Source: Gammaproteobacteria bacterium (GTDB lineage: Bacteria > Pseudomonadota > Gammaproteobacteria > Natronospirales > REEB76). From it: DNA of 64,000 nucleotides. The stretch spans positions 58,770 through 122,769 of the forward strand of contig JAGWOR010000001.1 of assembly GCA_028870845.1 (NCBI GenBank). Reading direction: 5' to 3'. This document shows positions 2,106 to 38,236 of the stretch, piece by piece; position 1 is the stretch's first letter, and every line of letters starts with the position of its first letter. The notes below the pieces were generated by a model. It saw only the letters and a program-made list of their open reading frames with translations. It did not search any database and was not told the origin of the DNA. A program made the translations under genes and the position numbers.

Positions 2106-3740
2106 TTATCGCAGGGCGCTGTGCAGGAAGGCGAGCACCTTGTTCCAGGCATCGCGGTCGGCAAAGGCATCGGCGGCCGGCCGGCCCCCGAGAGCAAGGC
2201 TGCCGTATTTCCCGGCTACGACACTGGCATTGGTGGGCCGGTAAGGCGGCAGGATGGCGTGACCGGCACCCGCATAGCACAACGATTCGTCCCGATAGGC
2301 ATGTGGGTGCGCGGCAAGCCGCTGCATGATCTGTTCAGCCATGAGCGACGAAGGCCAGATCTGGTCGTCGCTGGCGGAGACCAGCAGCACCGGAGCGGCA
2401 ATTTTTTCCACCGGAATGGCGGCCTGGCCAACCGCCGGCTTATTTTGCAGGCCGGCCCGGTAGCCACCCACGAAAGCCAGCGGCTGGTGGGATGTGAACA
2501 TGGCCGGATTGAAGACGAAATTGACCCACGGCAGAGGTTTGCCGTGCACAGTCCAGGAAGAGCTGATCGGGCCGGGACCGTTCGGAATGCCGCTCCACAC
2601 CACCGAACTCGGCATCAAGGCCAGCACCGCCTGGAATTCCTTGGGGAATGTGGCTGCCGTGACCAGCGCGGCTTCCGCACCCTTGGACCAGCCGATGACT
2701 GCAACCCGCCGGGGATTCACCCCGGGTTGCCGCCGGAGCCAGTCCGCAGCTGTGGCGAAGTATTCCAGCGGGATGTCCATCAACCGCCTGGGCAGGCGCG
2801 CAAGCCGCGGGTCTAAAGGTTGGAAACCCTGGAAGTAAGCCAGTGCCAGGGCCACATATCCATGGGCAGCCAGCAATGCCGCGAGCGGTGATGACGACGT
2901 CCAGCCGCCTTCCGAACCGCCCAGCACCACGATGGCAGGATGGGGACCGGGCGCGGCCGGCGTGTACAACACCCCCGCCAGGCCCTGCGCGCTGACCCGT
3001 GTTTTGATGACACCCGGTGCGCGCAGGTAACGGGTCACGGTGACTCGAGCCAGGATGCGCTGTCCAGCGAGCGCTTCGATTTTCAACGGCAGATCGGTGG
3101 CTTGGAGGGGTGTGCCGAACAGCACTTCCCGCGGGTTCTTAAGGTGCTGCGGCAGCATCGACCAGACGAGTCCCATGGCGTGTACGCCGGCGTAGCTGCC
3201 ATAGTCCGGGGCCTGCCGGTCCACATCCACACTGCCGCGGTCATCCGCGTGGTAGGTCGCCTCGGCGCTCCAGGAGCGATGTTTGTAATCCTGCAGGCTG
3301 GCGCGCAGCGTCACCGGTTCGCCCGGTTTCAAGCCGCTGACACGGATCGCAAGCGGCTGGTCCACCAGCGCCTTTTCCGGCGTGACGTTCAGGGCGATCG
3401 CCGGTCCGTATCTCCAGTGGTGCCACAACTCCGCGGGAGGCGTCGCCGCGATGACCGCCGGTTCGGAGAATTCCGCGGGCGCCGCCAGGCAATCCGCACG
3501 CCCGGCAGCCGGGGTGTTGGCGTTAGCCACCACTAGCCGCCCGCGGTTCGGCGTGGGCAGCAGGCACAGGATGATCACAGCCGCTGCGATCAACAGCAGA
3601 ATAATCATGCCGCTGCGTGCCATACCGGACTCACGACATTCGTTCCCGGCCCGGGAGCGCGGCATGGCGCGGTGGTTCGGTAACCCCGACGCACTCACCC
3701 ATGGATGACGGGAGGCACCGGGAAAAAATCCAATATGCAT
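2106..3740 (-). CDS. membrane-anchored BAAT/acyl-CoA thioester hydrolase-family alpha/beta hydrolase
   Basis: The N-terminal TM anchor is MIILLLIAAAVIILCLL. This is followed by a BAAT N-terminal beta-sandwich-like region (PLAIRVSGLKPGEPVTLRA) and a C-terminal hydrolase domain with the nucleophile elbow IGWSKGAE. I chose the start at 3740 because AAGGAG lies 7 nt upstream. The ORF itself is open to 3746, and 3623 is another candidate start. Confidence 0.7.
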   Translation of the reverse strand: MHIGFFPGASRHPWVSASGLPNHRAMPRSRAGNECRESGMARSGMIILLLIAAAVIILCLLPTPNRGRLVVANANTPAAGRADCLAAPAEFSEPAVIAATPPAELWHHWRYGPAIALNVTPEKALVDQPLAIRVSGLKPGEPVTLRASLQDYKHRSWSAEATYHADDRGSVDVDRQAPDYGSYAGVHAMGLVWSMLPQHLKNPREVLFGTPLQATDLPLKIEALAGQRILARVTVTRYLRAPGVIKTRVSAQGLAGVLYTPAAPGPHPAIVVLGGSEGGWTSSSPLAALLAAHGYVALALAYFQGFQPLDPRLARLPRRLMDIPLEYFATAADWLRRQPGVNPRRVAVIGWSKGAEAALVTAATFPKEFQAVLALMPSSVVWSGIPNGPGPISSSWTVHGKPLPWVNFVFNPAMFTSHQPLAFVGGYRAGLQNKPAVGQAAIPVEKIAAPVLLVSASDDQIWPSSLMAEQIMQRLAAHPHAYRDESLCYAGAGHAILPPYRPTNASVVAGKYGSLALGGRPAADAFADRDAWNKVLAFLHSALR

Positions 3741-3752
3741 ATTCATTCTCCT

Positions 3753-4532
3753 TCAACGGTCCTGGATGCGCCGCCAGCCAAGACGCGCAAGCCACAGGCA
3801 AACAACGGTGAACATCAGCAGGTAAATTACGTGCGCAAGATAATGGCCGTCACCGCCCTGGTGCACGATGCCGAGCGCAATCCGGCTGAGGTGATAGGCC
3901 GGAAATATGCGCGCGAGCTCCTGCAGCCAGAGCGGAAAGAATTGCAGTGGCACCCACAGGCCCGAAAGAAACGACATCGGCAGGTAGATGAGATTGATGA
4001 TGGCGGCCGATGCCTGGCCACCGGCGCGCAAACCGATCACCAGCCCCAGCGCGCTGAAGGGTGCGGTGCCGGCGATCAGTGCGAGCATCAGTAGGATCCA
4101 CTGCGCACGCGGCAGCGTTACGCCACCGAACAGCCCCGCCAGTGTGAACAGCAGCAGCGCAATCACCAGGGCGAACAGCATGGCCATGGCGGCTTTGGCA
4201 GCCAAGTAGGCCATCGGTGGCATGGGTGCCACGCGCTTCATCGCCAGGATGCCGTGATCACGTTCCATGGCCACGCCCATGCCGAAACCGAACAGCGCCG
4301 GCGCCATGATGCCGAAGGTCGAGTAGCTGGCGAGCATGTAAACCGCCGCGGAGTTGCCACTGCCTTTGGCGAAGATCAGGCCGAAAAACAAGTAGAACAT
4401 GGTGGGGAACAGCAGCGTCGGCAGCGCGAAACCCGGCATGCGCACCAGTCCCCAGAACTGGAAACCGGCTTCGCGCAGATATACGCCGAATGTGTCTCGC
4501 CAAGTCCAGTGTTTGACAGCAACAGTGTTCAT
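3753..4532 (-). CDS. ABC-2 type transporter permease
   Basis: 259 aa with about six hydrophobic helices. Its start overlaps the stop of the upstream ATPase gene (ATGA). Confidence 0.85.
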   Translation of the reverse strand: MNTVAVKHWTWRDTFGVYLREAGFQFWGLVRMPGFALPTLLFPTMFYLFFGLIFAKGSGNSAAVYMLASYSTFGIMAPALFGFGMGVAMERDHGILAMKRVAPMPPMAYLAAKAAMAMLFALVIALLLFTLAGLFGGVTLPRAQWILLMLALIAGTAPFSALGLVIGLRAGGQASAAIINLIYLPMSFLSGLWVPLQFFPLWLQELARIFPAYHLSRIALGIVHQGGDGHYLAHVIYLLMFTVVCLWLARLGWRRIQDR

Positions 4533-5449
4533 GCGGCTTGCTCCTCGGGGCGGTTTTCGGTCAGCGCCAGGAAGGCCTCTTCCAGCCGGGCACCGGTAAT
4601 TTCCAGGTCGTGCAGTGCGGGGTCGAGCTTGAGCATCTCGAGCAGCATGCCCTCGGGATGTGCCGCCACGATGTCGAGACGCTTGCCATCCTGGCGCACG
4701 CTGTTTACACCGGGCAGCCGCCTGATCTGCGTCTCATTGAGCGCGGTCACGCAGCGGATGTGGCGCTGTGCGACGCTGCGTTTGATTTCCGCCGGCGTGC
4801 CCTCGGCCACGACCCGGCCGCGGTTGATGACCACGATACGGTCGGCGAGCGCGTCGGCCTCTTCCAGGTAGTGGGTGGTGAGCACGATGCTGCGTCCGGC
4901 GCGTTTGAATTCCCGGAGGCGGTTCCAAAACCCGCGGCGCGATTCCACGTCCAGGCCCGCGGTCGGTTCGTCCAGGAACAGCAATTCCGGATTGCCGCAG
5001 ACTGCCAGGGCGAATAGCAGGCGCTGTTTCTGGCCGCCGGACAGCTTGAGCACCGGGCGTTTCTCCAGATCTTCCAACCCGGCGCTGCGAAGTATCTCGG
5101 CCAGCGGCATTGGTTCAGGGTAGTAGCCCGAATACAACCGGATGACTTCGCCGACCCGCGCGTGCCCGCCGAGCTGGGCGCCCTGCAGCACGGCGCCGAT
5201 CCGCCGGCGCGCACCGACATCGCGCGGCGACCTGCCGAACAACAGCGCGTTGCCGCTGGACGGCCGGCTGAGGCCCAGCAGCATGTTGACACTGGTGGTC
5301 TTACCGGCGCCGTTCGGGCCGAGCAACGCCAGTACTTCTCCGTGGCGAACTTCGAGATTCACGCCGTCTACGGCCAATACTTTGCCGTAGCGCTTGCTGA
5401 CACCGGTGAGAACGGCAACCGCAGCCCCGGTTTTTGATGTACTGTCCAT
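4529..5449 (-). CDS. ABC transporter ATP-binding protein (DrrA/CcmA-like, partner of the ABC-2 permease)
   Basis: Walker A is GPNGAGKTT, the signature is LSGGQKQRL and Walker B is LLFLDEPTAGLD. I placed the start at ATG 5449 (MDSTSK) because GGGAGAAG lies upstream. The ORF is open to 5509. Confidence 0.9.
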   Translation of the reverse strand: MDSTSKTGAAVAVLTGVSKRYGKVLAVDGVNLEVRHGEVLALLGPNGAGKTTSVNMLLGLSRPSSGNALLFGRSPRDVGARRRIGAVLQGAQLGGHARVGEVIRLYSGYYPEPMPLAEILRSAGLEDLEKRPVLKLSGGQKQRLLFALAVCGNPELLFLDEPTAGLDVESRRGFWNRLREFKRAGRSIVLTTHYLEEADALADRIVVINRGRVVAEGTPAEIKRSVAQRHIRCVTALNETQIRRLPGVNSVRQDGKRLDIVAAHPEGMLLEMLKLDPALHDLEITGARLEEAFLALTENRPEEQAA

Positions 5450-29695: not shown

Positions 29696-29702
29696 TCAGT
29701 GT

Positions 29703-33069: not shown

Positions 33070-33427
33070 GGAGTCGGCCGGACAGTCGCTGCGTACGCGC
33101 AGAGGAAAGTCCGGACTCCGCAGGACGAGGTGCCAGGTAACACCTGGGGGGCGCGAGCCCACGGAAAGTGCCACAGAAAACATACCGCCGATGGCCTTCG
33201 GGCTCAGGTAAGGGTGAAATGGTGCGGTAAGAGCGCACCGCGCGGCGGGTAACCGTTCGCGGCACGGAAAACCCCACCTGGAGCAAGACCAAATAGGGGA
33301 GCAGCGGGTTACGACCCGCACATGTGGATCCGCATGGCTTCCGGGTAGGTCGCTTGAGGTGCACGGTGACGTGCATCCCAGATGAATGGCTGTCCTCGAC
33401 AGAACCCGGCTTACAGGCCGACTCCTT
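33070..33427 (+). ncRNA. rnpB: RNase P RNA, bacterial type A
   Basis: Universally conserved blocks are read directly from the sequence: GAGGAAAGTCCGGACTCC, GGTAAGGGTGAAATGGTGCGGTAAGAGCGCACCG, AGATGAATGGCTGTCC and ACAGAACCCGGCTTA. The terminal P1 pairing is GGAGTCGGCC/GGCCGACTCC. The ends are accurate to within a few nt. Confidence 0.95.
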
Positions 33428-33665
33428 TTCCTTAAATTTCTTCCTTACTTTTTTAATTGTAGCCACCGTCGGTCACAAGAATGTGGTGCTGACCTTGTCA
33501 TTGGAAACCCTGCGGCTTTCTGAGACGCTTGATTCGATACGAAAGTTTTTGGGAGGCTTACAGAAGCGGTAAATTACGACTCGTAATCGATAGCCTATCT
33601 ATATGATTATATTGGATTTTCTGTTATTTCGAAGCAATATTAATTGGGATCGTGGTTGAAGACGC

Positions 33666-33692
33666 AAAACCCGCCTTTATGGGGCGGGTTTT
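33666..33692. terminator. bidirectional rho-independent terminator-like hairpin
   Basis: The sequence AAAACCCGCC-TTTATGG-GGCGGGTTTT is a GC stem flanked by an A-run and a T-run, so it could function on either strand. Confidence 0.6.
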
Positions 33693-33858
33693 GGTAGATA
33701 CCAGCTAACTTGTGTGGGTATCAGAAACACCTGATTTAGACGCAGCAAAATTTCGTCGTTTGCGGCCATGAGCCAGATATTCATGGAATTAGGGGTCCTG
33801 CCCCAATGAGGGCGATCTGGGATTCGGCTGCGCAGGGTAGCGGTTCCCACCAGATCCC

Positions 33859-33887
33859 TTGACAAAGTGTATTTTATACACTATCTT
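33859..33887 (+). promoter_or_regulatory. sigma70-type promoter of the islet operon
   Basis: TTGACA (33859-33864), a 17-nt spacer, then TATCTT (33882-33887). It lies 35 nt upstream of the first ATG. Confidence 0.6.
33866..33882 (+). promoter_or_regulatory. palindromic operator 1 (NrtR-type, GT-N7-AC core)
   Basis: AGTGTAT-TTT-ATACACT has perfect 7-nt inverted arms. It fills the spacer between -35 and -10. Confidence 0.6.
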
Positions 33888-33890
33888 GTA

Positions 33891-33907
33891 AGCGTATTTA
33901 GTACACT
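33891..33907 (+). promoter_or_regulatory. palindromic operator 2 (imperfect copy of operator 1)
   Basis: AGCGTATTTAGTACACT matches operator 1 at 14 of 17 positions and keeps the GT-N7-AC core. It lies 25 bp downstream, and both copies are followed by ATCT. Confidence 0.5.
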
Positions 33908-33922
33908 ATCTAGGGATCGACA

Positions 33923-34591
33923 ATGGCCTACACATACGAATATCCCCATCTGGCGGTCACCACCGATGTAGCAGTCTTTACCCTTCAGAAAGGCGAACTG
34001 CATGTACTTTTGATCCGCCGGGGAAATGATCCTTTCAGGGGCGCCTGGGCTCTTCCCGGGGGCTTTGTCCGGCCTGAGGAGGGTTTGGAAGATTGCGCTC
34101 GACGGGAGTTGGAGGAGGAGACCGGCGTTTCCGGGTTTTATCTGGAGCAGCTCTATACCTTTGGGGCGGTACAACGGGACCCCCGGGAACGAGTCCTCAC
34201 CGTCGCCTATTTCGCGCTCATTCCCAGCGACCGGGTGGTTCTCAAGGCCAGTGCCGACGCCGATGCGGTCGCCTGGTTCCCGGCGAATCGCCTTCCGGAA
34301 CTCGCTTTCGATCACCGAGATATCTTGAAGGCGGCACGAGAGCGCCTGGCCGCCAAGCTCGATTACTCCACCATCGCCTTCCAATTCATGCCGGCGGTTT
34401 TCACCTTAAGCGAACTCCAGACGGTCTATGAAACCATCAAGGGCGAGAAGCTCGACAAGCGAAATTTCCGCAAATCCATCCTCGCACTCAAAAGGCTTGA
34501 AACCACCGGCAAATATAAACGCGAGGGTGCGCACCGTCCCGCCATGCTGTATCGGATCAAGGCCCGTAAGGGCGTTGAAATCATCAAATGA
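33923..34591 (+). CDS. NrtR-family protein: Nudix hydrolase domain + C-terminal winged-helix DNA-binding domain
   Basis: 222 aa. The Nudix box is intact: G-FVRPE-E-GLEDCAR-RE-L-E-EE-T-G-V (nt 34061-34129). The C-terminal domain DYSTIAFQFMPAVFTLSELQTVYETIKGEKLDKRNFRKSILAL...AMLYR is typical of NrtR. Confidence 0.8.
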   Translation: MAYTYEYPHLAVTTDVAVFTLQKGELHVLLIRRGNDPFRGAWALPGGFVRPEEGLEDCARRELEEETGVSGFYLEQLYTFGAVQRDPRERVLTVAYFALIPSDRVVLKASADADAVAWFPANRLPELAFDHRDILKAARERLAAKLDYSTIAFQFMPAVFTLSELQTVYETIKGEKLDKRNFRKSILALKRLETTGKYKREGAHRPAMLYRIKARKGVEIIK

Positions 34592-34618
34592 ACACAGCTC
34601 AATCTAGGGAGAACTACC

Positions 34619-35638
34619 ATGTTTGGATTCAAATACCATAAAGCTTCACCCAATACCTATATTCTGCAGTTCAGAAACGGCCGCCCGGTGCGTGAAGGTT
34701 CGGGGCTGTCATTTTTCTACTTCGCCCCCAGTTCCTCACTGGTGGCAGTGCCCATGCAGTCATTGGAAGCCCCGTTCATGTTTCAGGATGTGAGCCGGGA
34801 TTTTCAGGACGTCACGATCCAGGGGCAGGTGAGTTTTCGGGTAACCGATCCCAAAAAGATCGCTGCCATGATGAACTTCACCCTGAAAAAAGACGCATCC
34901 GGCTGGATCGCCGAAGATCCGGTGAAAGTGCCCCAGAAGGTCATCAATGCCGTCCAGGTACAGGTAAAGAGCATCCTGCACACCCTGACCCTGGAAGAGA
35001 TCCTGCGCGGCACCGACCAGATCGTACGCACAGTCAGTACAAACCTGCACAAGGCGGAAGGCTTGTTGCAACTCGGTATCGAAATATCGGACTTTTCGAT
35101 CCTAGCCATCAAACCAAAGCCTGAGACCTCCAAGGCACTGGAGGCTAAGGTACGGGAAGCGATCCTCAAGGAAGCGGACGATGCGGTCTATGGGCGGCGG
35201 AATTCGGCGATCGAGCAGGAGCGGGCGGTCAAGGAAAACGAGCTTAAGACTGAGATTGCCGTGGAGCAGAAAAAGCGCGAAATCCGTGAAACCCAGATGG
35301 ATGCCGAACGTGCGGTGCTGGGGAAACGCCAGCAAATCCAGGATCAGGAGATGAAAGGCAAAATCAAACTTGAGGAGAAGAACAAGAGCCTGGTGCAACT
35401 CTCGGCCGAGAACGCCAAGAAGCAGGCAGATGCCAAGGCTTATTTCCTAGAGGCTATTATGAAGTCGGTGGCGGATGCAGACCCCAAAGTCCTGCAGGCG
35501 CTGACCCTGGGCTCGGCGGATCCCGCATCCATCATTGCCTTGGCATTCCAGGGACTGGCGGACAATGCCTCCAAGGTGGGCGAGCTGAATATATCGCCCG
35601 ATCTTCTGCAGCACCTCCTCAAGAAAAAGGCCGCCTGA
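34619..35638 (+). CDS. SPFH/Band-7 domain protein with a flotillin-like coiled coil and no predicted TM segment
   Basis: 339 aa. The N-terminal SPFH-like core contains VSFRVTDPKK and EISDFSILAIKP, followed by a roughly 100-aa E/K/Q/A-rich heptad region. I found no hydrophobic stretch long enough to span a membrane. AGGGAGA lies upstream as an RBS. Confidence 0.7.
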   Translation: MFGFKYHKASPNTYILQFRNGRPVREGSGLSFFYFAPSSSLVAVPMQSLEAPFMFQDVSRDFQDVTIQGQVSFRVTDPKKIAAMMNFTLKKDASGWIAEDPVKVPQKVINAVQVQVKSILHTLTLEEILRGTDQIVRTVSTNLHKAEGLLQLGIEISDFSILAIKPKPETSKALEAKVREAILKEADDAVYGRRNSAIEQERAVKENELKTEIAVEQKKREIRETQMDAERAVLGKRQQIQDQEMKGKIKLEEKNKSLVQLSAENAKKQADAKAYFLEAIMKSVADADPKVLQALTLGSADPASIIALAFQGLADNASKVGELNISPDLLQHLLKKKAA

Positions 35639-35639
35639 G

Positions 35640-36575
35640 ATGGACCCGCTGCAGAACAAGATCGTTCTGGTTACACGGCACACGCGGCTCGAGGATCTGG
35701 TGGCCCGGTTCAATACGTTGGAACAGGCCAAGTTCTATGTAGAGCACCTGGGGGCGGACTTCTCCGACTATGAGGTTGAAGACCGTACCTACCACCAAGT
35801 CATTACCGAGGCCGAGAAAGTCCTGGTGAGATTCGGGCGGGTGCAACGCCTGGATCGTGCCTTTTTGCCGAACTTCATCTTTCCACAGCACACACCGGTG
35901 GTGGTTATCGGACAGGACGGGCTGGTGGCCAATACACTGAAGTACCTCCAAGGACAGCCTATCGTTGCGGTGAACCCGGATCCCGCCCGCTGGGACGGTG
36001 TGCTCCTGCCGTTCAAACCTGATGATCTTGCCAAAGTGATGCCGGAAGCGCTCGCTAATAAGAGGCCTACACATAGCATTTCCATGGCCTGCGCCAAATT
36101 GAATGACGGCCAGTCACTGTATGCGGTGAACGATCTCTTCATCGGTCCGAAATCGCATGTTTCAGCTCGATATGCAATCCGGCTGGGAGATAAGACTGAA
36201 CACCACTCTTCCAGCGGCATCATCGTTTCTACCGGACTGGGTTCATCAGGCTGGTTCAGGAGTGTGCTGACCGGTGCCTGCCACATCGCTGCCGGCTCTG
36301 CCGCAAAGGAGATCAATATGCTGCGTGAACAGGGGTTTGCTTGGGAATCGCCCTATCTATATTTTTCAGTTCGCGAACCGTTTCCGAGCAATGTGACAGG
36401 CACCGATCTCGTGTTTGGCAAAGTAGATGCAGAAACACCGTTGCGAATCGTGTCCGAGATGCCGGATTACGGCGTGATTTTCAGTGACGGCATTGAGGCG
36501 GATTTCATGGAGTTTAATTCGGGTATGGAGGCGCGGATCGAACCGGCAGATCGCACGGGTCTTCTGATCAATTAA
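35640..36575 (+). CDS. NAD kinase-fold (ATP-NAD kinase/COG3199-like) protein, divergent
   Basis: 311 aa. VVVIGQDGLVANT aligns with the NADK GGDG motif, AVNDLFIG with the NE/D motif, and SSGIIVSTGLGSSGW with DGLIVSTPTGSTAY. It starts 1 nt after the SPFH stop codon. Confidence 0.65.
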   Translation: MDPLQNKIVLVTRHTRLEDLVARFNTLEQAKFYVEHLGADFSDYEVEDRTYHQVITEAEKVLVRFGRVQRLDRAFLPNFIFPQHTPVVVIGQDGLVANTLKYLQGQPIVAVNPDPARWDGVLLPFKPDDLAKVMPEALANKRPTHSISMACAKLNDGQSLYAVNDLFIGPKSHVSARYAIRLGDKTEHHSSSGIIVSTGLGSSGWFRSVLTGACHIAAGSAAKEINMLREQGFAWESPYLYFSVREPFPSNVTGTDLVFGKVDAETPLRIVSEMPDYGVIFSDGIEADFMEFNSGMEARIEPADRTGLLIN

Positions 36576-36598
36576 TCCAACAATCTTGTGCTAAATCC

Positions 36599-37165
36599 AT
36601 GACCGATATCCGCACCTCCCAAAGTTCACCGCTCCGGATTGATGGCATTGTCGTCAATAATCGCGGTGGCGAAGTAGGCATGACACTCTGTCCGGGGAAA
36701 CAGGGCCCAAGCATCTATGATGCATCCTGGGCTCGTAATCTCGGTGAAGACATTCGAACGATCAAGGAATGGGGCGCCGTGTCACTGGTCACGCTCATGG
36801 AACTCCAAGAGCTATCACTTTTCGGTGTACCAGGGCTGGGAGATGCTGCGCGTAGAGCCGGCTTGAACTGGCTTCATCTGCCGATTCGGGACGGGGAGGT
36901 ACCGGATACACGCTTCGAAAAGTTATGGTCTGATGTAGCCGCATCGCTTCTACGTGAGCTGGGTGCGGGACAGCGGGTGGTAATACACTGTCGCGGCGGC
37001 TTGGGTAGGACAGGACTTGTCTCGGGAATGCTATTAGTTGAGCTGGGTGAAATACCGGGTAAAGCCCTGTATCGGGTGCGTAAAAGCAGACCGGGTGCTG
37101 TTGAGACGGCTGAACAAGAAAGGTACCTGATGTCTTATCGGCCGATTGTCTATAATCAAAACTGA
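36599..37165 (+). CDS. Cys-based phosphatase (PTP/dual-specificity/CDKN3-like fold)
   Basis: 188 aa. The P-loop is VVIHCRGGLGRTG (HCX5R; the Cys codon is at 36989-36991). An upstream LHLPIRDGEVPD is a candidate general-acid loop. Confidence 0.75.
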   Translation: MTDIRTSQSSPLRIDGIVVNNRGGEVGMTLCPGKQGPSIYDASWARNLGEDIRTIKEWGAVSLVTLMELQELSLFGVPGLGDAARRAGLNWLHLPIRDGEVPDTRFEKLWSDVAASLLRELGAGQRVVIHCRGGLGRTGLVSGMLLVELGEIPGKALYRVRKSRPGAVETAEQERYLMSYRPIVYNQN

Positions 37166-37201
37166 GTCCAAAGCTGGATCTTCCATCAACTGGTGTTTGA
37201 C

Positions 37202-37483
37202 ATGCGTAAATCGAAAAAGCAAAAGTCCACACATGTTGATACTGAATTAGCGCATTTGGTTAAAAGCATGCAATCTAAAACGGCTCGTAAAGCGAGTCGC
37301 TCCGTATCAAAGGCAACCCCAGATGAGCTCGCTGATGCGGCTCGCAAATATAGATTGAACGAGAAAGCCATGTATCAGCTACAGGAATTACAGGCTATAG
37401 CTTCTAAACACAAGGGAAAACATAATACATCCATAGTGGATGAATTGATTAATGAACGCAGGCGGGATGCAAAATCTGAATAG
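37202..37483 (+). CDS. hypothetical small basic protein
   Basis: 93 aa from ATG 37202 (96 aa from GTG 37193). The N-terminus is Lys/Ser-rich and the C-terminus looks helical. GC is about 42%, lower than the four upstream genes. I recognise no family. Confidence 0.35.
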   Translation: MRKSKKQKSTHVDTELAHLVKSMQSKTARKASRSVSKATPDELADAARKYRLNEKAMYQLQELQAIASKHKGKHNTSIVDELINERRRDAKSE

Positions 37484-38150
37484 CAATACTTATTCCGGCT
37501 GAGAATCACCACCTATGTCTTATCTTAAAATCGTCGCTAATCCAGGTGGGGAAACCGTCAGCGATTACAGTTGACCTCATCACCATCGCAGACCAGTCGA
37601 TCACGCTACACCAGCGCGGGTCCAATACGCTGTGCGTGGCGAGGATTTTGGTAATCGACCGGGATGCTGTCAACGGCAACTAAAAATGTCCCCTAGTTTT
37701 CGCCCGTTTCGACCTCGGTGGGGCGCTCGGATTTGGGCGATTTGCCGAGCAGCCCCGTTGAATACCGCGAGAGCCTTGGCTTGGTGGCATAAATCAGTCC
37801 AAGAAATTGTCCGCACCCCCCGGAATTTGCATCAGCGTTTGACCCAGATAAAGCATCCCAGAGCCTGTAGCATCACTGGTAGTAGGTGATTTAGCCGGTT
37901 CAATGTTTAATGCAATTATCTGGGGTTATTTGCTCATATTTCGATGCAATTCAACAGTCGATTCATCAATTAGGGGTTTAGTGCAAACAATAAGGGGTTC
38001 GCGACACAGACCCATAAAGACCCTAAGGGCTTAAAGTGCCATCGAAGATGATTTTATAAGCCATTGATATTCAATTCTTTATTTCTCACAAATTGCTGCC
38101 ATTTTTGTTTCTAAGTCCCTGTCCCGCAAGCATTTTTTTGTATTTTGCCC

Positions 38151-38179
38151 TTGACGATGGGCAAACAGCTTCCTATAGT
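38151..38179 (+). promoter_or_regulatory. dcw cluster promoter (Pmra-like)
   Basis: TTGACG (38151-38156), a 17-nt spacer, then TATAGT (38174-38179). It lies 58 nt upstream of the mraZ ATG. Confidence 0.7.
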
Positions 38180-38183
38180 GTGC

Positions 38184-38213
38184 GTGGGTGGGAAAAAGTG
38201 GAATGAAATGGGA
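38184..38213 (+). promoter_or_regulatory. putative MraZ operator (TGGGN direct repeats with 10-nt periodicity)
   Basis: GTGGG is at 38184, and TGGGA, TGGAA and TGGGA are at 38189, 38199 and 38209. They lie just downstream of the -10 box, which resembles the GTGGG repeat operator described for E. coli MraZ. Confidence 0.55.
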
Positions 38214-38236
38214 CAAACAGGCATTACGGTGGGCGC

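Follow-up and report, generated by a model that had tools for sequence, protein, structure and literature searches.

Two predicted NrtR operators overlap the promoter of an nrtR operon with SPFH and NADK2-like kinase genes in a gammaproteobacterium

Introduction

The operators of NrtR repressors were described by Rodionov et al. in 2008 as 21-bp palindromes with a GT-N7-AC core that overlap promoters and were predicted to mediate repression (PMC2330246). Table 1 of that study also lists a gene pair, nrtX-nrtY, which is divergent from nrtR across a site in Proteus mirabilis, is preceded by a site in Hahella and Streptomyces, and whose function was not explained. Here we analyze a promoter with two putative operators of this type at 33859-33909 of a 64-kb window, by which we mean the whole stretch of 64,000 nucleotides taken from a Gammaproteobacteria bacterium (assembly GCA_028870845.1, contig JAGWOR010000001.1, positions 58,770 to 122,769), where it precedes an operon that begins with nrtR and continues with genes for an SPFH protein and an NAD-kinase-fold protein. 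We estimate a probability of roughly 0.85 that this segment is a sigma-70-type promoter with two operators for the adjacent NrtR repressor, which would auto-repress the operon until released by a product of nicotinamide adenine dinucleotide (NAD) breakdown. Computation established the sites and their conservation, the geometry of the promoter, the protein family and the conservation of DNA-contact residues.

The closest solved homolog of the window's regulator is BtAraR of Bacteroides thetaiotaomicron (BT0354; structures 5dd4, 5ddg and 5deq), with which it shares the recognition helix DKRNFRK and the wing residue Arg205 (PMC4666351). BtAraR recognizes GTGT-N7-ACAC in 21-bp sites that stand in tandem 3 bp apart (4 bp in the window), and two dimers bind, yielding two bands in electrophoretic mobility shift assays (EMSA); it differs from the window's protein in that it controls arabinose genes. 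SoNrtR of Shewanella oneidensis (SO1979; 3gz5, 3gz6 and 3gz8), a repressor released by ADP-ribose (ADPR) and 2'-phospho-ADP-ribose (pADPR), has two tandem sites at prs-nadV, both functional in EMSA. Its similarity to the window's protein is weaker (E 5e-34), and its recognition helix reads QGKSFRR rather than DKRNFRK, so its operator sequence differs; moreover, the Shewanella site lies between nrtR and prs-nadV and nrtR itself is not preceded by one, unlike in the window. ADPR and pADPR release both SoNrtR and the Synechocystis NrtR from DNA in vitro. For MsNrtR of Mycobacterium smegmatis, auto-repression has been demonstrated by experiment and ADPR disrupts binding to DNA, although this protein uses a single 23-bp palindrome, GTTTTCGA-N7-TCGAAAAC, with a different half-site sequence, in an nrtR and nadABC divergon (PMC6800001).

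Promoter and operator architecture

The -35 hexamer TTGACA (33859-33864, + strand) and the -10 hexamer TATCTT (33882-33887, + strand) enclose a 17-nt spacer (33865-33881) that can be read directly from the sequence. A further 35 nt separate the -10 hexamer from the nrtR start codon at 33923, with a Shine-Dalgarno-like AGGGA (33912-33916, + strand) 6 nt 5' of the ATG. These coordinates agree with a first-pass annotation of this DNA, which had proposed a near-consensus promoter 35 nt upstream of the first gene. A consensus promoter scan recovered the same hexamers with 10 of 12 positions matching; a promoter-like match of this kind is not significant on its own, as four were found in 5.3 kb against 4.1 expected.

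What distinguishes this promoter is the first operator, O1 (AAAGTGTATTTTATACACTAT; 33864-33884, without strand), a predicted 21-bp NrtR site with the core GTGT-N7-ACAC. The last base of the -35 hexamer is position 1 of O1, the 17-nt spacer constitutes positions 2-18, and positions 19-21 (TAT) open the -10 hexamer, which is completed by the next 3 nt. Within O1 lies a perfect 17-bp palindrome, AGTGTATTTTATACACT (AGTGTAT-TTT-ATACACT; 33866-33882), which takes up all but one of the 17 spacer bases, extends into the -10 hexamer by its first T and had already been noticed as filling the spacer. The second operator, O2 (TAAGCGTATTTAGTACACTAT; 33889-33909, without strand), is also a predicted 21-bp NrtR site, has the left half-site GCGT and begins 4 bp past the end of O1. 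It contains a second copy of the palindrome, AGCGTATTTAGTACACT (33891-33907), identical at 14 of 17 positions with a start-to-start distance of 25, as previously described. Both copies retain GT-N7-AC, both are directly followed by ATCT, and both operators have the symmetry expected of 21-bp NrtR sites. In a repeat search, the unit lengthened to a direct repeat of 22 nt in which 19 of 22 positions are identical (33865-33886 and 33890-33911).

The first-pass annotation had identified GT-N7-AC as the core of NrtR operators, which is accurate with respect to the 2008 study, and its observations on the two copies and their trailing ATCT held throughout. Its definition of the unit needed revision in two respects: the palindromes are real, but the unit is the pair of 21-bp sites rather than a 17-mer, and the GT-N7-AC core is kept in both copies, but conservation of the half-site is stricter than GT and extends to GTGT.

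Judging from the position of the -10 hexamer alone, transcription would start at approximately 33893-33896, in which case O2 spans the predicted start and the early leader. The resulting geometry is that of a repressor site, with O1 overlapping both hexamers of the predicted promoter and O2 lying over the predicted start, and the operators precede the regulator's own gene, as would be expected of an auto-repressed nrtR operon.

In the 64-kb window, the palindrome pattern occurs at O1 and O2 only, each matched on both strands, whereas 0.19 occurrences would be expected by chance. A weight matrix derived from orthologous sites (see below) assigns 29.4 bits to O1 and 22.7 bits to O2, and no further NrtR site in the window scored above chance; the next best match had 12.7 bits (at 29696), and the best of 20 shuffles reached 15.7 bits.

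Between the RNase P RNA gene rnpB and this promoter, about 165 nt 5' of the -35 hexamer, we observed a perfect 11-bp inverted repeat, CAAAACCCGCC-N7-GGCGGGTTTTG (33665-33693), which would form a GC-rich hairpin with runs of A and T on its flanks. It was not listed by the terminator scan. By appearance it looks like a bidirectional intrinsic terminator, which would leave the nrtR promoter free-standing.

Conservation of the operators

Three close relatives of the operon (L084-L086) encode kinases with 79-88% and NrtR proteins with 78-88% identity to those of the window. Their blastn homology to the window starts at 33856-33858, at the -35 hexamer, and ends at 36532-36562, at the end of gene 3; in a four-way alignment nothing 5' of CTTGACA is alignable. 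From there on, the conserved blocks are CTTGACA, GTGT...TACAC, TATCTTG, AG(T/C)GT...ACACTA and the Shine-Dalgarno sequence, which is AAGGA or GAGGA in the relatives. Both promoter hexamers are invariant in the relatives, while 6-7 central bases of each operator vary in every sequence, and the operators, the hexamers and the Shine-Dalgarno sequence are the sole conserved non-coding sequence at these loci. Invariant arms around free centers are the pattern predicted for protein-binding half-sites rather than for an RNA helix.

We then considered more distant orthologs in a set of 80 loci whose NrtR proteins are 52-70% identical to that of the window, fetched from contigs representing one genome per species in many phyla (Gammaproteobacteria, Planctomycetota, Myxococcota, Verrucomicrobiota, Chloroflexota and others), so that 81 loci were compared including the window. 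A site was defined as GTGT-N7-ACAC with at most one mismatch within 150 nt 5' of the start codon. By this definition, two or more sites are present in 36 of the 81 loci and a single one in 22, such that 58 loci carry at least one site. The first-pass annotation had held that absence of the palindromes upstream of orthologous operons would refute it, and they are instead widespread there. In the upstream stretches the core motif has a density of 7.7 per kb, compared with 0.22 per kb across the other 825 kb of these loci, a 35-fold enrichment. Many of the matches elsewhere are tandem pairs, located either before the gene that follows nrtR or at the head of an operon that contains nrtR.

A symmetric weight matrix built from 89 ortholog sites has the consensus TTAGTGTA-N5-TACACTAA. 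The GTGT and ACAC arms are conserved at 97-99% across these sites, loop length and sequence are free, and the flanking TTA...TAA agree even though they lie outside the selection criterion. In the typical ortholog, cTTGAC is followed by a first 21-bp site and, after 1-6 nt, by a second one that ends about 10-15 nt short of the ATG. TTGAC (at least 5 of 6 matches to TTGACA) abuts the distal site in 27 of the 57 site-bearing ortholog loci, and in 19 of 35 two-site loci an abutting -35 hexamer is accompanied by TAnnnT beginning at site position 19 (TAT or TAA). The phylogenetic footprint thus comprises the 58 site-bearing loci, the 35-fold enrichment and the close-range alignment.

These patterns bear on the proposition that the palindromes act as RNA leader hairpins, such as an attenuator or stability element, or reflect chance symmetry in AT-rich DNA. 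O1 can indeed fold into a 7-bp hairpin of -5.6 kcal/mol (z = -3.5); however, O1 lies upstream of the predicted start, the O2 hairpin reaches only -2.0 kcal/mol, and the leader as a whole appears unstructured (z = +0.9). The arms are invariant rather than covarying across orthologs and no T run follows either site, while chance is excluded by the uniqueness of the pattern in the window, the matrix scores and the upstream enrichment. We consider this explanation extremely improbable and rejected the RNA-hairpin version of it on the basis of its weak energies, the invariant arms and the placement of O1 5' of the predicted start.

The NrtR protein and recognition of the half-sites

Gene 1 (nrtR; 33923-34591, + strand) encodes a protein of 222 aa in which an N-terminal Nudix fold with an intact Nudix box is fused to a C-terminal NrtR-type winged helix. 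The Pfam NUDIX model matches residues 16-136 with 83 bits (cut-off 21, E 1.8e-23) and NrtR_WHD matches residues 152-211 with 85 bits (cut-off 27, E 3.2e-24), and the best solved relatives, in full-length alignments, are BtAraR (5bs6, E 2e-48) and SoNrtR (3gz5). This domain content is in keeping with the winged-helix repressor that had been proposed for the first gene.

The crystal structure of BtAraR with DNA, in which the operator is AAAAGTGTTACTTTTACACCC, provides a framework for the half-site. In that structure four residues, Lys179, the intercalating Arg180, Asn181 and Lys184, define the GTGT motif jointly with Lys204 and Arg205 of the wing (PMC4666351). In a HMMER alignment with the same numbering, the gene 1 protein is identical to BtAraR at Ser163, Asp178, Lys179, Arg180, Asn181, Arg183, Lys184, Arg205 and Ala207, and it has R, H and M in place of the BtAraR DNA-contact residues K200, K204 and A208, respectively. 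With the exception of K204, the base-contacting residues are conserved in 75-86 of 86 aligned orthologs; Ser163, though identical in the gene 1 protein, is Ser in just 49 of the 86. By analogy with BtAraR, each GTGT half-site would be read by one monomer through Lys179, Arg180, Asn181, Lys184 and Arg205.

Proposed mechanism and effector

The arrangement suggests a switch. One NrtR dimer would bind each operator through its winged-helix domains, and because O1 occupies the spacer and shares bases with both hexamers while O2 covers the start, the bound repressor would exclude RNA polymerase and thereby shut off its own operon, which comprises nrtR, the SPFH gene (probable nrtX), the NADK2-like kinase gene (probable nrtY) and probably a phosphatase gene. 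When a product of NAD breakdown accumulates, most likely ADPR or pADPR, it would bind the Nudix domain and move the DNA-binding domains apart, so that the repressor comes off the DNA and allows expression of the operon. Given its intact catalytic signature, NrtR may also hydrolyze its own inducer and in this way reset the switch.

Several observations weigh against this interpretation in whole or in part. At O2 the left half-site is GCGT (33891-33895), where the three close relatives have AGTGT and 97% of ortholog sites have T at the changed position; this single T to C change costs about 7 bits on the weight matrix. O2 is therefore probably the weaker site, and the change may make the window's copy leakier than those of its relatives. 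Among the 81 orthologous loci, 23 have no site within 150 nt, which in many cases is explained by sites that stand before the first gene of the nrtR-containing operon instead. Site-to-site spacing is 22-27 bp in all pairs but one (30 bp), with 23 the commonest value, a range that speaks against cooperative binding in a fixed geometry. Since the window's own site served as the seed of the motif search, the information content of the matrix core is partly by construction, although the comparison of upstream stretches with the rest of the loci is unaffected. At the protein level, the NCBIfam equivalog NF050029, 'ADPR responsive transcriptional repressor', was not reached (179.9 bits against a cut-off of 400), which places the gene 1 protein outside the curated orthologous group of the characterized protein, though in the same family. 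Lastly, BtAraR, the closest solved relative, senses L-arabinose and not ADPR, and NdnR of Corynebacterium responds to NAD.

The last three of these points favor a scenario in which the sites, the repressor and the occlusion are as described and the effector is something other than free ADPR, namely NADP or pADPR, NAD as a co-repressor, or a sugar as in BtAraR and XylR. SoNrtR is released by pADPR, NADP, NADPH and NaADP at 100 uM as well, and an operon with an NAD-kinase homolog and a phosphatase would fit NADP or pADPR as effector. The evidence from the Nudix domain points elsewhere, however. The signature GX5EX7REUXEEXGU correlates in its intact form with ADPR pyrophosphatase activity, as seen in NuhA versus Slr1690 (PMC2330246), and the gene 1 protein retains it in full as G47-x5-E53-x7-R61-E62-L63-x-E65-E66-x-G68-V69, a box found intact in at least 81 of the 86 orthologs, whereas the catalytic residues are missing from BtAraR. 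Arg33, Arg85 and Arg88 are conserved in 85-86 of the 86 orthologs; in pairwise sequence alignments alone, Arg88 corresponds to Arg98 of SoNrtR, Arg33 to its R41 and Tyr7 to its Phe15. Arg98 hydrogen-bonds ADPR in SoNrtR and its equivalent in the arabinose-specific BtAraR is Gly89, as relayed in the BtAraR report (via PMC4666351), and the substitution R98E makes a SoNrtR-based biosensor unresponsive to ADPR (biosensor preprint).

Gene neighborhoods lead in the same direction as the Nudix residues. No pentose-utilization genes were found beside any of the orthologs, and the neighbors are instead genes of NAD and ADPR metabolism: nadA lies directly downstream in 26 loci, and pncA, pncB, an ADP-ribosylglycohydrolase gene, and nadR-like, NADAR and PARG-like genes are also found. 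Together with nadV in one close relative (L084) and the NADK2-like kinase of the window, they make up a candidate regulon of NAD synthesis, salvage or ADPR-processing genes. We infer that ADPR is the best-supported effector, and we regard an effector other than free ADPR as possible but unlikely; one of its versions, pADPR, would in any case be a variant of the proposed mechanism rather than a contradiction of it.

In L084, nrtR and the SPFH gene are separated by an inserted nadV gene (3507-4928), which encodes a nicotinamide phosphoribosyltransferase with NAMPT_N and NAPRTase domains. By its domain assignment, this predicted gene ties the cassette directly to NAD salvage.

Gene content of the operon

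Beginning with gene 1, five open reading frames (ORFs) share one strand, with only short gaps between the first four. Gene 2 (34619-35638, + strand; 339 aa) encodes an SPFH/Band-7 protein (Pfam Band_7, E 8e-19) without an N-terminal hydrophobic segment and with a long charged C-terminal region. Gene 3 (35640-36575, + strand; 311 aa) encodes an NAD-kinase-fold protein that is closest to mitochondrial NADK2: a profile of 12 homologs matches human NADK2 (7r4j) with E 2.9e-16 across both halves of the fold and bacterial NAD kinases with E 2e-4 or weaker. No Pfam model matches gene 3, and its match to the NCBIfam NAD kinase model is weak. The NAD kinase motifs (GGDG, the NE/D motif and the glycine-rich C-terminal motif) are present in altered, family-specific versions that are nearly invariant in the family: GQDG, NDLFIG (NDLF.G) and STGLGSxGW (STGxGS.GW), with GQDG standing for GGDG. 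More than 8000 homologs were found, named 'sugar kinase' or 'NAD kinase' in their sources, and an exact look-up of the window's kinase (P0001) returned no identical record.

The SPFH gene precedes the gene 3 homolog in every clear locus, the exceptions being a fragmentary match (L003) and a weak one of 24% (L078). The SPFH and kinase genes constitute a constant two-gene unit, whether or not nrtR lies beside it (L081, L082, L083, L089 and L090). In three of the loci where the pair occurs without nrtR (L083, L089 and L090) no NrtR-type sites were found, and NrtR control therefore appears to be optional for the pair.

The P. mirabilis locus (L082) permits a direct comparison with the nrtX-nrtY unit of the 2008 study. 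There, nrtR (2774-2163, minus strand) is divergent from an SPFH gene (2984-3994) and a kinase gene (4001-4921), with three GTGT/GACAC-type sites between them (at 2891, 2926 and 2951), and its products are 44% (NrtR), 42% (SPFH) and 54% (kinase) identical to those of the window. This arrangement matches that of Table 1, and we therefore equate genes 2 and 3, by species and arrangement, with nrtX and nrtY, an assignment that is probable. A Rhizobium plasmid carries the same divergon of nrtR and the SPFH-kinase pair as P. mirabilis. In the window, by contrast, nrtR, nrtX and nrtY run in one direction from a single promoter, such that the regulator would be autoregulated together with its targets, and a phosphatase gene is appended.

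This gene 4 (36599-37165, + strand; 188 aa) encodes a dual-specificity or protein tyrosine phosphatase (PTP) with the motif HCRGGLGRTG and Pfam matches to Tc-R-P, CDKN3 and PTP-SAK. It starts 23 nt after gene 3, for which reason it is probably co-transcribed. A 50%-identical PTP gene follows nrtY in one close relative (L086) and an HAD phosphatase gene follows it in Kitasatospora, so the pairing of kinase and phosphatase recurs. A lysine-rich ORF of 96 aa (37193-37483, + strand) comes next and is an uncertain member of the operon; it is 80% identical in another locus (L088), where it also stands directly after the phosphatase gene. No family match over threshold was obtained for this ORF, its single match, to VMAP-M7, being below it.

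Searches with a bearing on function returned little. PADLOC gave a generic Nudix match (PDC-S07) for gene 1 only and none for genes 2-5. A literature search retrieved no paper that joins SPFH, NAD kinase and Nudix or NrtR, and a search of the anti-phage literature found nothing relevant, with NrtR cited only in passing in the NARP3 paper.

Genomic context and mobility

The operon lies in a low-GC island (33430-38230; 45-55% GC against about 60% in the flanks) between the RNase P RNA gene and mraZ. The RNase P RNA (33070-33429, + strand) is a full-length match to bacterial class A RNase P RNA with 324.7 bits, and the ORFs listed across it are spurious. On the other side, a promoter-like TTGACG-17-TATAGT (38151-38179) lies about 60 nt 5' of mraZ (38237), which is followed by rsmH, ftsL and ftsI; this is the expected position of a dcw-cluster promoter.

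By homology to other contigs, the island consists of two modules that abut at approximately 36560. Module A (33856-36562) contains the promoter, the operators and nrtRXY, and its relatives adjoin the Tn7-like genes TniQ, TniB and TnsB; two of them (L085 6936-12936 and L086 8572-12936) lie in Tn7-like cargo regions with TniQ/TnsD, TniB and TnsB, accompanied in L085 by a type I restriction-modification system. Module B (36559-37449) contains the phosphatase gene and the 96-aa ORF. It recurs with 79-82% identity in L088 (1801-4700), without nrtRXY and between TniB/TniQ and an OLD-family ATPase-TOPRIM nuclease, the phosphatase copy being 79% identical. A metagenome scan with the phosphatase yielded only two loci, one of which shows the phosphatase gene and the 96-aa ORF as a separate module. 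No transposition genes were seen beside the island in the window itself.

This mosaic structure raises the question of whether the 22-bp repeats are instead recognition sites of a mobile element, such as end repeats bound by a Tn7-like transposase or recombination sites. Such a reading would account for the TniQ, TniB and TnsB genes beside the cassette's relatives, for the homology boundary at 33856-33858 and for the low GC content of the surrounding island. Against it, tandem sites also precede nrtR in stable chromosomal synteny (aspS-nrtR-nadA...yebC-ruvCAB) and in divergons of nrtR and an SPFH gene, their distance to the nrtR start is always fixed, they are embedded in -35 and -10 hexamers, the far end of the island has no inverted counterpart of them, and the residues that read GTGT are present in the adjacent protein. 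We judge this explanation very improbable and rejected the transposon-end reading, given that the same sites occur in non-mobile syntenic contexts.

The operator reading is thus the one we retain, and a separate question is what the mobility of the operon may signify. One nrtR-less SPFH-kinase pair (L089 3970-10936) lies in an integrase/TraI/KfrA element directly 5' of Wadjet-like genes (DUF3375/JetA, JetB and a JetC-like ATPase). This pair is widespread, as the identical kinase protein appears in 202 blocks of the sequence collection. A profile search with nrtY found no relative in viral contigs, and there is therefore no sign of a phage-borne cassette. One may postulate that the promoter, operators, nrtR, SPFH gene and kinase gene together constitute a self-contained mobile ADPR alarm cassette, which would fire on the flood of ADPR released by an NADase toxin or immune effector (such as TIR or SIR2) rather than serve housekeeping NAD homeostasis; we consider this doubtful. 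If it were true, the scaffolded kinase, here with a phosphatase, would re-partition or protect the NAD(P) pool or phosphorylate ADPR, and nrtX-nrtY would represent a new NAD-centered function in damage control or defense.

Discussion

The interpretation proposed in the first-pass annotation is supported in each element that is open to computation. The operator pair adds one well-supported, if ordinary, case to a regulatory design known since 2008: its motif class and tandem layout, the logic of repression and the autoregulation have all been published, and so, very probably, have the target genes as nrtX-nrtY. Its practical value lies in the weight matrix, in a clean predicted promoter and operator for a lineage represented by metagenome-assembled genomes, and in a structural rationale for the GTGT half-site.

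This clade of NrtR combines an intact Nudix box with DNA-reading residues of the BtAraR type, and it is therefore a good candidate for a regulator that hydrolyzes its own inducer. The sole intriguing part of the locus is the role of its cargo together with its travel on mobile elements; the SPFH-kinase pair often resides in mobile elements beside defense genes, and this makes its function directly testable.

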